Assembly (NCBI GenBank): GCA_948777935.1
Contig: CAQDYY010000001.1
Location: 404,930-468,929, forward strand
Direction of reading: 5' to 3'
Source: an uncultured Clostridia bacterium
GTDB taxonomy: Bacteria > Bacillota > Clostridia > TANB77 > CAG-508
DNA: 64,000 nt
The position numbers and the translations under genes were made by a program. Below are positions 18,834-53,726 of this stretch, piece by piece; position 1 is the first letter of the stretch, and each line of letters opens with the position of its first letter. Under the pieces are notes generated by a model. It searched no databases. It saw nothing but the letters and a program-made list of their open reading frames with translations, and was not told the DNA's origin.

Positions 18834-19169
18834 CTTTTTCCTCCTTATTATAACATTTTATTTTTTATTATGCAATACAAAATGACAATTTGTTTTAAGT
18901 TTTTTTACCACCTTCTTTACTTCATTTTTGTTTTTGGATTTTTGTTCTAGAATTTTTAGAACTTTCTTTTTGCTCTTACACTGATGTTTTTGAATTTTAA
19001 ATTTTTAGATTTAATTCTTTTTTATTATACATCTTTTTTGTTATTTTGCAAGAAAAACTTTTCGACATTTTTAGACAGTATTTTTATATATTCTATTAAT
19101 CATAATTTTTCATAATGTAACTTAAAATAGCATGTTCTGTTATAAAAAAGCAAAAGCAAAATATATGGA

Positions 19170-19335
19170 ATTTGAAAAGAAGCGTCTTGAAAGTAAATTT
19201 TGTATACGTATGTTTTAAAAATTTGTGGGAGAATCTCACACACTTGTGAGAGGGGCCTACAAATTTTTATTACATACTGTGCAAAATTTATCTTGAACGA
19301 GCGGTTTTGAAAATTCCATATATTTTACTTTTGCT
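19170..19335 (+). repeat. Family-5 ~165-bp repeat, copy 1 (second copy 37334-37498, ~97% identical)
   Basis: Near-identical sequence aatttgaaaagaagcgtcttgaaagtaaattttgtatacg...gtgggagaatctcacac..gtgagaggggcc...; imperfect terminal inverted repeat GGAATTTGAAAA / TTTTGAAAATTCC. Confidence 0.7.
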
Positions 19336-32816: not shown

Positions 32817-34532
32817 GTGAAACAAAATAAAAATGGTTCTGTAATGACATATTTTAAAGATTTATTTTGGTATACGCCACATAAAGAATATAGTTTTACT
32901 ATACCTGAAGCAAATAACAATGAAAATGCTACTTACACTGAAAATAATAACAATTATGAATCTCCTAAAAATATATTTCCCAAAATTGGTACTAACTTAG
33001 AAACAATTACTACACTATATAATGCTATGATTAATAGTGATATTATTATAAGAGAATTTAGTTTAATTGCAAAAAACAAAGAATATAAGGCTTTTATTTT
33101 ATACATTGATGGTATGGTCGATACAAAAATTGTAAATAACTTTGTATTAGACCCTCTTATGTTACGAAATCAAGCAAATACTTATACAAATCCTGAAGCT
33201 GATGTTTCAAAGGAAGTTGTAACAAATCATATTACTGTAAGAAAAGTAAAAAAATTCGACCTAGCTTCATATATTTTAAACCACTTAATTCCACAAAATA
33301 GTGTAAAGCAAGTAGCTACTTTTGATGATGTAGCTTCCTCTGTCAATTCTGGAAATTGCCTTCTTTTTGTTGATACTTTAAATATCGCTTTTGATATTGA
33401 TGCAAAAGGGTTTAAGCAAAGAAGTGTTGGAAAACCAGAAAATGAAATCGTTATTCGTGGTTCACAAGAAGGTTTTACTGAAAATATTCGTACAAATACT
33501 TCTCTTTTAAGGCGTTTTTGTAATAATGAAAAATTAATTATAGAAAATTTAGAAGTTGGAAATTTAACAAAAACAAAATGTGCAATTTGCTATATGAAAA
33601 ATGTTGCAAATAATGATTTAATAGCAGAGGTAAAATATCGTATTAACAATGTCTCAGTTGATAGTATTATTTCTTCTGGTCAGCTAGAACAGCTTATATC
33701 TGATAATGGAAAGTTTAGTGTTCCTCAAATGATTTCAACAGAACGTCCAGATAATGCTACTAATTTCCTATTATCTGGTAGAGTAGTTATACTAGTAAAT
33801 GGTAGCCCATATGCTCTTATTGCACCGGGTACTTTTATTGATTTTATATCATCACCTGAAGACTTAAACTTAAAATATAAGTTCTCTAATTTACTAAAAT
33901 TAGTTAGAATTTTTGCAATTATTTTAACATTACTATTACCTGGATTTTATGTAGCAATTACGAATTTTCATCAAGAACTTTTACCTACTGAATTATTATT
34001 TGCTATTGTAGCATCTAGAGAAAACATCCCTCTTCCTATCATTTTTGAAATTTTAGTTATGGAGTTTTCTTTTGAGCTCATTCGTGAAGCAGGTATTCGT
34101 GTTCCCTCTCCTCTTGGTCCAACTATTGGAATTGTAGGAGCATTAATATTAGGACAAGCAGCTGTTGATGCAAATATTGTAAGCCCTATCTTAATTATTG
34201 TGGTTGCTATTACTGCTATTGCATCTTTTGCTATTCCTGATTATTCTTTTAGCTTTCATTTTAGGCTTGCAAGGTTTATCTATATTATATTTGGATATCT
34301 ATTAGGATTTTTAGGAATTGCTACTTGCTTATTCTTCCATTTACTATTACTTGCAAGTTTAAATTCATTTGGTTATCCTTATTTACAACCTTATGTACCT
34401 GTAACAAAAGATTACAATGGACTATTATTGTCTCCTGCTTGGAAAAGAGAACATCGTGCTGATTTCTTAAATACAAAAAGACCTAAAAAACAACCTGATA
34501 TTAGCATGAAATGGAAATTTCCTAACAAATAG
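32817..34532 (+). CDS. spore germination receptor A subunit (GerAA/GerKA family)
   Basis: 571 aa; GerA-family core and C-terminal TM domain; GTG start with GGAG RBS. Confidence 0.85.
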   Translation: MKQNKNGSVMTYFKDLFWYTPHKEYSFTIPEANNNENATYTENNNNYESPKNIFPKIGTNLETITTLYNAMINSDIIIREFSLIAKNKEYKAFILYIDGMVDTKIVNNFVLDPLMLRNQANTYTNPEADVSKEVVTNHITVRKVKKFDLASYILNHLIPQNSVKQVATFDDVASSVNSGNCLLFVDTLNIAFDIDAKGFKQRSVGKPENEIVIRGSQEGFTENIRTNTSLLRRFCNNEKLIIENLEVGNLTKTKCAICYMKNVANNDLIAEVKYRINNVSVDSIISSGQLEQLISDNGKFSVPQMISTERPDNATNFLLSGRVVILVNGSPYALIAPGTFIDFISSPEDLNLKYKFSNLLKLVRIFAIILTLLLPGFYVAITNFHQELLPTELLFAIVASRENIPLPIIFEILVMEFSFELIREAGIRVPSPLGPTIGIVGALILGQAAVDANIVSPILIIVVAITAIASFAIPDYSFSFHFRLARFIYIIFGYLLGFLGIATCLFFHLLLLASLNSFGYPYLQPYVPVTKDYNGLLLSPAWKREHRADFLNTKRPKKQPDISMKWKFPNK

Positions 34533-34577
34533 CTTACTAATATAATATATAAATACACACAAAGAAAATTTAGCCTT

Positions 34578-34725
34578 CATAGGTAATAATTATATAAATA
34601 ACTACGAAGAATCTCGGAGCCATAAGTGGGGACCAATAGAAACCGTCAAAATGTGTTTACACATTTTGTACAGTTCCACCCAGGAATGGCGACGGTTCGT
34701 AGGTATTTATATATTATTACCTATG
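34578..34725 (+). repeat. Family-4 structured element with long flanking inverted repeats, copy 1 (between gerA-A and gerA-B genes)
   Basis: Core ACGAAGAATCTCGGAGCCATAAGTGGGGACCAATAGAAACCGTC[hairpin]...GGAATGGCGACGGTTCGT; second copy 52531-52675; stems show compensatory changes. Confidence 0.6.
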
Positions 34726-34750
34726 AATAGCACCTAAAATTAGAAAGGAT

Positions 34751-35881
34751 TTGAATTTTATGAATTCTACAAAAATAGGAACTTTTGAAGCAATTGCATT
34801 TATCGTTGTTATAATCTTAAATCAAATTGTATTAAACTTACCACAAAACTTACTAGATGAATGTGGTCCATCTACCCCTCTTAATCTAATACTTGTTATT
34901 GCCTTTGTTTTCTTATTTTTGTTTATTATGCTAAAACTATGGAAACCATTTGGTAATAGCGACATTTTAGACATTAGTGAATTTTTAGGTGGAAAAGTTT
35001 TTAAAACAATAATAGGTTCTATTTTTATTATATATTTTTTAATGATTTCTGGTACTCTACTTCGTAACTTTACTGAAATGTTAAAACTAGTATACTTAGA
35101 AAAAGCCTCTATTTGCTTAATTGTTCTATTTTTTATTATAGCTTGTGCCGCTGCAAACAGATTTGGATTTAGAAGTGTTATAAGGTGTAACCTTATTTTT
35201 GTACCTATTGTTTTATTAAATTTACTTATTGCATTTTTTTGCTTATTTCCTCGTTTCGAATTAAATAGAATTTTTCCTATTTTTGGATATGGTATAAACC
35301 AAACTTTTTTTACTGGAATGACTAATATATTTGCATTTACAGGAATTAGTTATTTATATTTCTTAAAGCCATTTCTAAAAAAGCCCGAAAGCTTTAACAA
35401 GATTAGCTATATTTCAATAGGTATTTCTGCTTTTTACTTATTTTTAAGTATAGTCACACTTCTATTTTCCTTTGCAGATGTTTTAACTGTTAATGACCTT
35501 TCTTCTGTATATGTACTAATTCGTGGTACAGATTTTGGAAGATTTTTGCAAAGGCCTGATGCATTATTTATTTTAGGTTGGATTTTAGTTCTTATGAGTT
35601 ATATAAGTACTACTGTTTTACTAGTTAACCATATATTTAGCAAACTAGCAAAAATACAAGATACAAAGCCTATGGTTTATTGTTTTTCTACATTATGTTT
35701 TATTTTTGCATTAATTCCAAAAAACATGGTTGCAATTAGATGGCTAGAAGATACTCTATTTCGTTATGTAACAATTATTTTAGTATTTATAATTAGTTTT
35801 TGCATTCTTCTATTTGCGTATTTTAAACACAAAAAGCAGATGTCTTATGTACAAAAGGGGGGTTTAACAAGTGAAACTTAA
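34751..35881 (+). CDS. spore germination receptor B subunit (GerAB/GerKB family, APC-type permease)
   Basis: 376 aa, ~10 TM segments, Spore_permease-like. Confidence 0.8.
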   Translation: MNFMNSTKIGTFEAIAFIVVIILNQIVLNLPQNLLDECGPSTPLNLILVIAFVFLFLFIMLKLWKPFGNSDILDISEFLGGKVFKTIIGSIFIIYFLMISGTLLRNFTEMLKLVYLEKASICLIVLFFIIACAAANRFGFRSVIRCNLIFVPIVLLNLLIAFFCLFPRFELNRIFPIFGYGINQTFFTGMTNIFAFTGISYLYFLKPFLKKPESFNKISYISIGISAFYLFLSIVTLLFSFADVLTVNDLSSVYVLIRGTDFGRFLQRPDALFILGWILVLMSYISTTVLLVNHIFSKLAKIQDTKPMVYCFSTLCFIFALIPKNMVAIRWLEDTLFRYVTIILVFIISFCILLFAYFKHKKQMSYVQKGGLTSET

Positions 35882-37109: not shown

Positions 37110-37333
37110 GTGATATATTTTGAAAATTGTTATTGCTATTTTATCATTTTTTGTATTTTTAAAAACATTTTTTTATGGAATTTATGAATGGAAAGAACAA
37201 AAAAATAAACGGAGGTAGTATTGCAATTTTTGTATTAAGCATTATTACTCTAATTGTTCCAACATTTTTAGTAAATTTACGAATTAACTTGTAGGATATT
37301 CTATTTGTACAATATGTAGCTGTAACCTAAAAT

Positions 37334-37498
37334 ATTAAAATTTGAAAAGAAGCGTCTTGAAAGTAAATTTTGTATACGTATGTTTTAAAAATTTGTGGGA
37401 GAATCTCACACCCCTGTGAGAGGGGCCTACAAATTTTTATTACATACTGTGCAAAATTTATCTTGAACGAGCGGATTTGAAAATTTTATATATTTTAG
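37334..37498 (+). repeat. Family-5 ~165-bp repeat, copy 2
   Basis: See copy 1 at 19170-19335; 4-5 mismatches. Confidence 0.7.
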
Positions 37499-37536
37499 GT
37501 TCACAGCTACAGTTTACAACTTTAAATATTTTATCA

Positions 37537-39424: not shown

Positions 39425-39586
39425 TTATTTTTCTCCTATTCTTTGTTTATACTGTAAGAATTTTTATCCGGGTGGATGAAAAGCTCCATACAGTATAAAT
39501 ATGCAAATTTCTAGAATTACTAACGTATAACTTATCCGTACGCATTAAAAATGCTACGGATAAGAAATCTTTGCGGTTCCCACCGC
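39425..39586 (-). other. highly structured intergenic region (nested long hairpins) between rbfA and nrnA
   Basis: 11-bp inverted repeat TTTATACTGTA...TACAGTATAAA enclosing 35 nt just upstream of nrnA RBS; 10+5 bp hairpin CTTATCCGTAGCATTTTTAATGCGTACGGATAAG; GCGGTGGGAACCGC hairpin. Confidence 0.4.
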
Positions 39587-39964
39587 TTAGAAATTCTTGT
39601 ATTTGTTATCATCTTTTTTAGGCATAATTTCTTTTAGTATGGAATCTATTTTAGATCCATATTCAATTGAATCATCTAACACAAAAACAAGTTCTGGTGT
39701 AATTCTTAAGTTTATTGTTTTTGCAATTCCACTTCTAATAAAACCAGAAGATTTTTTCAATGCTTCTAATGTTTCATTTGTATTTTTAGAATTTAATATA
39801 CTAACATATACTTTAGCATATTTTAAATCTGGTGTAACATGTACTTTTGTTACACTAATTAATCCTGTTACATTTGGATTTTGTAGTTCATAACTAATTA
39901 TATGACTAATTTCCTTTTTTAATTCCTCACCAATTCTTTCAAATCGCGCATTATTCTTTGGCAT
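39587..39964 (-). CDS. rbfA: ribosome-binding factor A
   Basis: 125 aa; RbfA KH-like fold sequence, position after infB. Confidence 0.85.
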   Translation of the reverse strand: MPKNNARFERIGEELKKEISHIISYELQNPNVTGLISVTKVHVTPDLKYAKVYVSILNSKNTNETLEALKKSSGFIRSGIAKTINLRITPELVFVLDDSIEYGSKIDSILKEIMPKKDDNKYKNF

Positions 39965-49443: not shown

Positions 49444-49718
49444 ATATAATCTTTCTACACCATAAAAAATCACTAAAACCATATGTTTTAGTGATTAATT
49501 TATATATTGTAAAAGAATTGTAGCAAATGCAAAAACTAGCAAAGTAACTTTGCTTATTACTGTTTTAGTAGAGTTTACATTTTCTACAAAATTTCTCATT
49601 TTTTACACCCTAAAAGATAGTACTACAATTTCCATAAAAGTTCAAGTACTTTTTTGTAATTTTTTAAGATTTTTATAATACTATTCATACTTCTTTTATA
49701 AGAACTTACGAAGCTTTG

Positions 49719-49897
49719 CAAGAGAGCCCCTTTAATAAGGGGGCTGGCGCCGATAGGCGACTGGGGGTTCTTAAAAAACATTTAGAAGAACCCTCCGTCA
49801 GTGCTTCGCACTGCCAGCCACTGCATAAGATATCTGTAATGCTCACTAGCGTTCGCTAACAGCTATCTTAACCTCCCTTGTTAAAGGAGGTTTCTTG
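49719..49897 (+). repeat. ~180-bp imperfect palindrome formed by two Family-2 units head-to-head (MITE-like, ~26-bp terminal inverted repeats CAAGARASCYCCTTTAAYAAGGGRG)
   Basis: Unit 49719-49773 (minus orientation) and unit 49786-49897 (plus orientation, with ~50-bp insert); outer ends are reverse complements of each other. Confidence 0.6.
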
Positions 49898-49947
49898 TAT
49901 GCCTTCGCAGATATTCTTATTTGCTATAGTCTGAACAGTAACATATT

Positions 49948-52448: not shown

Positions 52449-52530
52449 TTTATATCCTCCAATCAATCATTACAAATTATACCAAAATTTGTAAATTAAA
52501 ACAATAATTTTACATAATTTTGTATTTTCA

Positions 52531-52675
52531 TCTATAATAGTATATAAATCTCCACGAAGAATCTTGGAGCCATAAGTGGGGACCAATAGAAACCGTCAAA
52601 ATGCGCAAGCATTTTGTACAGTTTCATTGGGGAATGGCGACGGTTCGTGGGGATTTATATACTATTATAGATGTG
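52531..52675 (+). repeat. Family-4 structured element, copy 2, with perfect 20-bp flanking inverted repeat TCTATAATAGTATATAAATC
   Basis: See 34578-34725; P1 stem CCACGAA/TTCGTGG vs CTACGAA/TTCGTAG in copy 1 (compensatory). Confidence 0.6.
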
Positions 52676-52773
52676 CTCAATAAATATGTATGTTTTAACT
52701 TAAAATAGCGTATTGGTACCTAAAAAAATTAGTACATAAGCTATTATCTACTAATTTTAATTAATAAGACATA

Positions 52774-53471: not shown

Positions 53472-53545
<74 letters not shown>

Positions 53546-53622
53546 GCGCCCTTAGCTCAGTTGGTCAGAGCAACCGGCTCATAACCGGTGGGTCCAAGGT
53601 TCGAATCCTTGAGGGCGCACCA
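53546..53622 (+). tRNA. tRNA with CAU anticodon, most similar to tRNA-Ile2 (lysidine) / elongator Met
   Basis: GCGCCCTTAGCTCAGTTGGTCAGAGC...CGGCTCATAACCG...GGTTCGAATCC..GGGCGCACCA; not initiator-type. Confidence 0.8.
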
Positions 53623-53640
53623 CTTTTTTTAACTAAATAT

Positions 53641-53726
53641 GGACAGGTGGCCGAGTGGCTAAAGGCGGCAGACTGTAAATCTGTTCTCATACGAGTACGA
53701 AGGTTCGAATCCTTCCCTGTCCACCA
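53641..53726 (+). tRNA. tRNA-Tyr (anticodon GUA)
   Basis: Long variable arm, anticodon loop CUGUAAA, GGTTCGAATCC TPsiC, CCA; followed by hairpin terminator 53729-53761. Confidence 0.85.

Follow-up and report, generated by a model that had tools for sequence, protein, structure and literature searches.

Between gerAA (GerA family; 32817-34532, plus strand) and gerAB (spore permease; 34760-35881, plus strand) of an uncultured Clostridia bacterium stands a long hairpin, and the question raised by this locus is whether the element regulates the germinant-receptor operon, as a first-pass annotation had suggested, or is a repeat that came to lie there. The analysis was done on a window of 64,000 nt from contig CAQDYY010000001.1 (GCA_948777935.1; positions 404,930 to 468,929), which has a GC content of 29%, is identical in sequence to contig CAPSQN010000001.1 of GCA_948701455.1, and sets the numbering used for the features below. 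The second answer is preferred. With a probability of about 0.72, the element is one copy of a foldback repeat, non-coding and non-autonomous, that resembles miniature inverted-repeat transposable elements (MITEs) and belongs to a few related uncultured AT-rich gut Clostridia, and in the gerA operon it is a passenger.

Two copies of the element with a common identical core are present in the window near the positions first reported, and nhmmer found only these two. Copy 1 (whole hairpin unit of arms and core, 34576-34728, plus strand) lies in the gerAA-gerAB spacer with its core sense to gerA, and copy 2 (52529-52673, plus strand) is flanked by the 3' end of a CmpB-like gene and by the GtrII gene promoter, antisense to both of these minus-strand genes. 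The 5' conserved half of the core, GGAGCCATAAGTGGGGACCAATAGAAACCGTC (34616-34647, plus strand), contains the almost invariant AAGTGGGGACCAATAGAAAC, and the 3' conserved half, GGAATGGCGACGGTTCGT (34683-34700, plus strand), has a block GTTCCACCCAGG, called variant B below, directly upstream; each half occurs exactly twice in the window and in none of 100 shuffles. The apical hairpin CAAAATGTGT/ACACATTTTG (34647-34668, plus strand) varies among copies in sequence and length with pairing kept, and the reported difference between the two window copies (GTGTTTACAC vs GCGCAAGC) was confirmed. The arms of copy 1 (34576-34608, including the half-helix CTACGAA, and 34696-34728, including TTCGTAG) are 33 nt each with 1 mismatch and one 1-nt offset, and those of copy 2 (52529-52558 and 52644-52673) are 30 nt and 97% complementary. 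The enclosing inverted repeat, earlier described as perfect and 20-30 bp long, is therefore real, near-perfect, and 30-33 bp long. Copy 1 is indeed close upstream of gerAB; it ends 31 nt, not about 25 nt, before the likely ATG at 34760, which agrees with the start of the 373-aa homologue P0121, and 22 nt before an alternative TTG at 34751. The gerAB ribosome-binding site AAAGGA (about 34743-34748) is outside the hairpin.

The family was searched for in 185,579 genomes (one per bacterial species) using the 18-mer AAGTGGGGACCAATAGAA, which gave 35 loci, 31 with the element and 4 chance matches, a count in which diverged relatives are underrepresented because the scan used one exact 18-mer. Host genomes were compared as 8-kb pieces. 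At least 15 copies are present in CANOGC01, a sister metagenome-assembled genome (MAG) of an uncultured Clostridium sp., and at least 17 in CALXRX01, a MAG of a Clostridia bacterium; JAAWDR01 has one diverged copy, and BLAST and nhmmer added the diverged copy L016b and the truncated copy L020. The DNA of the window and of CANOGC01 is about 96% identical across the gerA region. Host relatedness was taken from purD/purN of loci L025 and L030, the window sharing no orthologues with the CALXRX01 loci. No homologues of the element were found in phage, plasmid, and viral collections, and a Terrisporobacter plasmid match was rejected as AT-rich chance similarity. Two metagenome scans returned zero matches although JGI contigs carry the element, so these zeros reflect the content of the collections and not rarity. 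All copies are intergenic and occur in all four classes of neighbour orientation (12 co-directional antisense, 6 co-directional sense, 8 divergent, and 3 convergent), and their neighbours are unrelated, including GerA/GerB, CmpB/GtrII at copy 2, purN/purF, and a histidine kinase with an HD-GYP response regulator.

The termini of the repeat are best seen in CALXRX01, where every copy lies inside an outer shell of near-constant length (206 bp, range 204-209) and the unit size in the window is 145-153 bp. The shell ends in 14-17-bp terminal inverted repeats, GTTA[A/C][A/T]GTTCAGACTAT ... ATAGTCTGAAC[A/T][G/T]TAAC, and all 16 scorable copies have the pair GTTA[A/C][A/T]GTTCAGAC.. / ..GTCTGAAC[A/T][G/T]TAAC with 0-4 mismatches; as a short sequence, the terminus is GTTAMWGTTCAGAC. 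Interior to it is a second inverted repeat of about 27-30 bp around an asymmetric core of about 85 nt. The AT-rich 8-bp flanks of the 16 copies match at 8/8 positions in 6 copies, at 7/8 in 3, and at 6/8 in 2, with a mean of 6.0/8 against a null of 3.1 from mismatched pairs. These terminal inverted repeats and 8-bp target duplications identify the element as a MITE, and the 206-bp units fit the published definition (PMC3184786). The units are small and have no conserved open reading frame (ORF), and the dispersed copies show presence/absence variation. Short ORFs of 14 aa and 31 aa on either strand were rejected since the reading frame differs among copies, a 2-nt length polymorphism of the apical hairpin shifting the frame. 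In CANOGC01, the shell is seen in a few copies (L028a, L028b, and L032) and most have only degenerate traces of it. The window copies, likewise, consist of the inner module, and of the outer termini they keep only degenerate remnants. Decayed or nested copies also occur, among them one with another repeat in its apical loop (L018), a deletion derivative (L034), and a solo end (L026).

The history of the gerA junction is readable from relatives. In the lineage with 71% identical GerAB (L047-L049), the gerAA-gerAB gap is 15 nt and has no element, and in the lineage of the window it is 227 nt with the element. The full inserted stretch of copy 1 (34540-34736) lies between the conserved flanks ..TTACTA and AAAATTAGAAAGG.. 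and includes, besides the hairpin, a relic solo arm (34542-34563) and a probable degenerate outer terminus, GAAAATTTAGCC. The solo arm-like sequence, ATAATATATAAATACACACAAA, shows 86% complementarity with copy 1's right arm and was probably left behind by a previous copy at this site; 13 nt are deleted here in CANOGC01 (L006). Strains of the window lineage differ only by a block of five substitutions, variant A (GTTTCATTGGGG) or variant B, present at the same gerA locus in different strains. Both variants also recur away from gerA, as would be expected if copies exchange sequence by gene conversion. A second gerA allele (L079, L080, and L083 and, for its right half, L040 and L041) contains another, oppositely oriented copy whose left arm is partly deleted, and its gap is 189 nt. 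It has the flanks ..TTACTA and ATTAGAAAGG.. in common with the window allele, and gerAB is intact. The allele of the window orientation was found in that one orientation in all of more than 20 contigs; many short Logan contigs begin or end inside the element at gerA.

The same picture was obtained at copy 2, whose inserted stretch (52522-52692) was defined against relatives with conserved flanks and has a degenerate outer terminus, ATTTATTGAGCAC, on the minus strand. Both flanks of this site are conserved in relatives with 84% identical CmpB; L060 has only two shell termini there, 54 nt in total, and L061 has an arm remnant only. Given these empty and alternative alleles, both window loci are occupied, remodelled insertion sites and not conserved regulatory regions. 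A good sigma-70-type promoter for the GtrII gene (TTTACA, 17 nt, TATAAT; minus strand, 52466-52500) is directly downstream of copy 2 and is also conserved in element-free relatives, copy 2 being inserted just upstream of the intact promoter. At two further loci (L025:6104-6248 and L030:4889-5033), a copy stands just upstream of purN in the same orientation in hosts whose purD/purN are 62-74% identical; a perfect target duplication of 8 bp flanks the L030 copy, and independent insertion is for this reason likelier than ancient inheritance.

These alleles bear directly on the proposal that the element is a cis-regulatory RNA dedicated to gerA, riboswitch-like or an attenuator, that controls gerAB and gerAC. 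The proposal draws on the position of copy 1, sense to the operon and 31 nt upstream of the gerAB start, and on the fact that many strains of the species keep it there. It is already contradicted by the distribution of the element and is almost certainly wrong. The same junction does without the element in the nearest other lineage, an allele with intact gerAB has it inverted and partly deleted, and copy 2 and about 30 others have no relation to germination genes, as expected of a dispersed multicopy repeat with unrelated neighbours in all orientations. The annotation's remark that no known riboswitch class matches still stands, and it too speaks against a gerA-specific RNA. With Rfam 15, the whole window gave no match for the element at gathering thresholds, and both copies searched at E values up to 10 gave only sub-threshold noise; known ribozyme and riboswitch classes were ruled out on either strand by these empty searches. 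The annotation would have given up a function if just two copies existed and relatives lacked them: far more than two copies exist, and the element nonetheless behaves as an inserted repeat. Incidentally, the copy 1 hairpin might still influence processing or stability of the gerA mRNA.

The structured hairpin with compensatory changes is genuine, and support for it extends to the core and outer helices across the 34 copies of the covariation alignment (A2). The difference in the closing helix between the window copies (CTACGAA/TTCGTAG vs CCACGAA/TTCGTGG) was confirmed. RNA folding gave z = -9.2 for copy 1 and -11.1 for copy 2, and DNA folding gave z = -8.3 and -11.8, respectively; each unit folds to a single long rod, and both strands fold far better than shuffled sequence. 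The consensus has an outer stem of about 26 pairs; a helix P1, ACGAA/TTCGT or TTGAA/TTCAA; above it CG/CG, a tandem G.A, and GCCAT/ATGGC; an asymmetric internal loop with AAGTGGGGA facing GGA; and an upper part of CCAAT/ATTGG, a bulged A, GAAAC/GTTTC, and the variable apical hairpin. Core helices are 96.9% paired with 12 pairs changed on both sides, and the outer stem is 96.6% paired with both-side changes in 22 of 26 pairs, values matched in 0 of 500 shuffles in either case. An additional helix, ACCGTC/GACGGT, was rejected, one of its pairs being unpaired in 19 of the 34 copies and the observed value being reached by 500 of 500 shuffles; pairs 47-129 and 48-128 covary and are preferred over it. 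A K-turn was considered for the internal loop, which has the tandem G.A but also a 7-nt bulge and one extra G; judged by sequence, it is not claimed.

The annotation had each copy enclosed by an inverted repeat of its own. The outer arms do differ between copies, but they are not a second enclosing feature; they are homologous arms that drift and stay complementary, and the apparently different repeats would be one arm pair drifting in concert. Variability is greatest in the outermost arm pairs, which still keep their complementarity. In the outer stem, 9 G.T pairs were counted against 7 A.C mismatches, so G.T is no commoner. Selection at the RNA level would tolerate G.U and not A.C, and the arm pattern therefore fits DNA repeats in which one arm would serve as template for the other and so preserve complementarity.

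Several observations weigh against the MITE-like reading. The copies lacking a shell, including the two of the window, have a mean flank match of 6.4/8 against a null of 6.1 set by the AT-rich background, and clear terminal repeats are missing from the window copies. The 8-kb host pieces and the plasmid search yielded neither an autonomous element nor a transposase with these termini; among the loci examined no terminal-repeat pair flanks an ORF, and the plasmid search gave only AT-rich chance matches. Between CANOGC01 and CALXRX01, with only 62-74% identity of their purD/purN products, the core hardly changes, a conservation far above that expected of MITE filler, and its helices covary, with GCCAT/ATGGC replaced by ATGTT/AACAT in L007. 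In 26 of 35 copies, the core's G-rich strand coincides with the strand whose GC skew is negative (22 vs 6 among strong skews), the skew being taken over 8 kb, at which replication and transcription direction are not separable; within CALXRX01, the strand bias is 13:4 for the core and 7:10 for the shell. Selfish, passive filler predicts neither the conservation and covariation of the core nor this orientation bias. Also outside its prediction is the presence of the core in two orientations inside the CALXRX01 shell, which is itself asymmetric (AAGTACTTAAT on one side and TTTTAAAAAAGTAAA on the other): the core stands one way in 9 copies and the other way in 8. Identical arm variants occur in both classes, which shows that inversion recurred.

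One way to account for the conserved core is a functional structured RNA riding on the mobile element. In cis, it would be a processing, stability, or insulator hairpin that makes insertions into operons harmless, and in trans, a small RNA. Its unpaired core nucleotides are almost invariant across three host lineages while the helices covary, the tandem G.A is flanked by the covarying pair 47-129 (A-U in 15 copies and C-G in 14), and both strands fold far beyond shuffles. The minus strand is usually co-oriented with the neighbouring genes; there, CANOGC-type copies have a G.U wobble in place of their C.A mismatch, and the 9-nt internal loop reads UCCCCACUU. C-rich loops pair with Shine-Dalgarno regions in small RNAs of Firmicutes, and this loop is of that kind. 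The idea is nevertheless unlikely. Rfam has no match on either strand, no promoter or terminator consensus inside the element rises above chance, one locus tolerates both orientations, wobble pairs are not enriched over A.C mismatches, and the covariation comes from few independent events in three lineages.

The two orientations could also mean that the inner module, arms and core together, is an independently mobile or invertible foldback cassette, recognised as folded single-stranded DNA by an HUH nuclease or a site-specific recombinase. Such a cassette would insert at the centre of palindromic targets, for example the outer shell, and would be copied by hairpin transfer, which would by itself make the arms perfectly complementary and give rise to the 'flip/flop' orientations known from parvoviral terminal repeats. 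Consistent with this are the core standing both ways in an asymmetric shell (9 vs 8) with identical arm variants in each class, the strand bias seen in the core and not in the shell, and the variability of the outermost arm pairs, still complementary. An 'empty shell' at the copy-2 site (L060), two different, opposite inner modules with the same right junction at gerA, the lack of an intact shell in most CANOGC01 and window copies, and a second repeat family of the window with copy-specific complementary outer arms (see below) also fit. However, a conventional MITE undergoing terminal decay, ordinary inverted-repeat recombination, and gene conversion among copies can produce all of these observations as well; no candidate enzyme was found among the loci examined, no clean target-site signature is definable for the inner module, and the numbers are small. 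This alternative is accordingly held to be quite improbable.

Invertons, such as the cwpV and flgB switches of Clostridioides difficile, are the other known arrangement in which a segment of about 100-150 bp stands in either orientation between inverted repeats of about 20-30 bp. The element resembles them in its segment of about 100 bp bounded by inverted repeats of about 30 bp, in both orientations relative to its surroundings, and in the opposite orientations of different strains at the gerA junction, and its core could in principle be a phase-variable switch that toggles adjacent genes. This is very unlikely, as the gerA alleles differ in arms and flanking filler and not by a simple flip, and switching at one and the same locus was not seen, all of the more than 20 contigs of the window allele having a single orientation. 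The core also lacks a promoter consensus, no recombinase gene was found beside the copies examined, and the repeat is mobile and multicopy with target-site duplications.

The MITE-like reading was compared with described families. Bacterial MITEs (Correia/CREE of Neisseria, RUP of S. pneumoniae, ERIC of enterobacteria, and Nezha of cyanobacteria; PMC3184786) have in common with the element a length below 400 bp without a transposase gene, terminal inverted repeats with target duplication, many intergenic copies folding to a long stem-loop, frequent co-transcription with neighbours, and presence/absence variation between close strains. The element differs from them in a target duplication of 8 bp instead of TA, in the second, longer internal inverted repeat around the asymmetric core of about 85 nt, in a core that is better conserved than the termini, covaries, and occurs in both orientations inside the unit, and in that no parent insertion sequence was identified. 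REPINs, the REP doublets mobilised by RAYT (PMC3116915), are also long non-coding intergenic hairpin repeats with frequent compensatory changes described on the two sides, and are thought to act as single-stranded DNA or RNA hairpins, which was counted as a likeness. They have highly conserved end 16-mers around a variable middle, lack a target duplication, are linked to a RAYT gene present in single copy, and usually come from Proteobacteria and are GC-rich, in contrast to the element, in which the middle is conserved, the arms vary, the duplication is 8 bp, and the hosts are AT-rich Clostridia. Identity with REPIN/REP was rejected on the variable arms and the 8-bp duplication, and an IS200/IS605-derived palindromic element (PATE) on the terminal inverted repeats and 8-bp duplications, neither of which PATEs have, their hairpins being subterminal and strand-specific.

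The termini bear a likeness to the IS6/IS26 family (PMC6807381), which also has an 8-bp target duplication. Compared with the consensus GGTTCTGTTGCAAA, the terminus of the element has CTGTT at positions 5-9 and G7 in common and matches at 8/14 positions; it lacks the GG start, and no transposase gene was found. In the long Clostridial clades VII/VIII (ISCbo1, ISCpe7, and ISTps1), G10 is lacking and the outermost bases are not fully complementary (PMC6807381), both of which also hold for the element. The resemblance, drawn from a published consensus and not a test, is at most a lead to a possible source of the transposase. Viral contigs scanned with the shell terminus gave group-I-intron-like cores and chance matches and no insertion sequence. 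The 17-mer GTTACAGTTCAGACTAT was found inside apparent group I intron cores (GACTAT ... hairpin ... TAGTC) in the IMG/VR contigs L067, L068, L072, and L073, of which one has a LAGLIDADG ORF within it (L072) and another is beside IS605 tnpA/tnpB (L073); these occurrences are probably unrelated to the shell terminus. At L028:4311-5879, two inverted copies bracket an HD-GYP response-regulator gene downstream of a histidine kinase gene. This pair is probably not a composite transposon, an interpretation that was rejected on the lack of a flanking duplication and on a cargo that is not a transposase.

For the MITE-like repeat, the following course of events is proposed. The 8-bp duplication would be the signature of cutting or copying by a DDE-type transposase supplied in trans. 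The arms would be kept complementary by arm-to-arm copying of DNA, through gene conversion or hairpin repair between the inverted repeats, and crossover or template switching during the same recombination would place the core in either orientation inside the asymmetric shell, so that a single process may economically explain both homogenisation of the arms and inversion of the core. At gerA, the element would have inserted into the former 15-nt gerAA-gerAB junction and would be tolerated there in either orientation, presumably neutrally, with copy 1 co-transcribed as a passenger of the operon. Any effects on the operon, such as RNase III-type processing, lost translational coupling, or partial pausing, would be by-products and not designed regulation.

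Other repeats of the window and its relatives were also recorded. A strongly structured, GC-rich repeat of about 250 nt (49690-49940, minus strand) begins with GTTACTGTTCAGACTAT, the terminus of the CALXRX01 outer shell; it starts GTTACTGTTCAGACTATAG and ends ..AGTATGAATAGTAT, has no Rfam match, and has a related piece at L016:6145-6243. It may be a different cargo of the same terminal repeats, and its having the shell terminus suggests that one type of terminus carries different cargoes. A second family (37311-37511, 19153-19332, and L006:1460-1659) has a conserved structured core, ..GTGGGAGAATCTCACAC..GTGAGAGGGGCC.., and outer arms that are copy-specific and complementary within each copy, the same pattern as in the gerA element. 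A third, small family (39439-39618, L018:5965-6085, and L033:395-575) has the sequence TATACTGTA.GAATTTT..AAAAGCTCCATACAGTAT; AGAAATTCT..GCGG..CCGC..AGAATTTCT, and one of its members is inserted in the apical loop of the L018 copy of the gerA-type element, making these nested mobile repeats. The sole Rfam matches in the window are a cluster of three tRNA genes (53472-53723).

Recognition of the repeat guards against annotating a mobile hairpin as a germination-operon riboswitch and accounts for short-read assemblies of these mouse-gut Clostridia breaking inside the element. It also brings to light a new MITE-like family of uncultured AT-rich Clostridia and provides a natural case in which a three-gene receptor operon tolerates a perfect hairpin of 150 nt, in either orientation, at a junction of 15 nt in relatives. 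A more speculative account, which we consider unlikely, is that the inner module is a previously undescribed foldback element whose almost invariant apical domain, AAGTGGGGACCAATAGAAAC ... GTTTCATTGGGGAATGGCGAC, would serve as a recognition or catalytic module in folded single-stranded DNA or RNA, with the module moved, inverted ('flip/flop'), and homogenised independently of a DDE-type shell and a strand-specific function explaining the orientation bias. The conserved asymmetric core, its two orientations, and its strand bias could, if studied further, lead to a hairpin-specific DNA or RNA mechanism.

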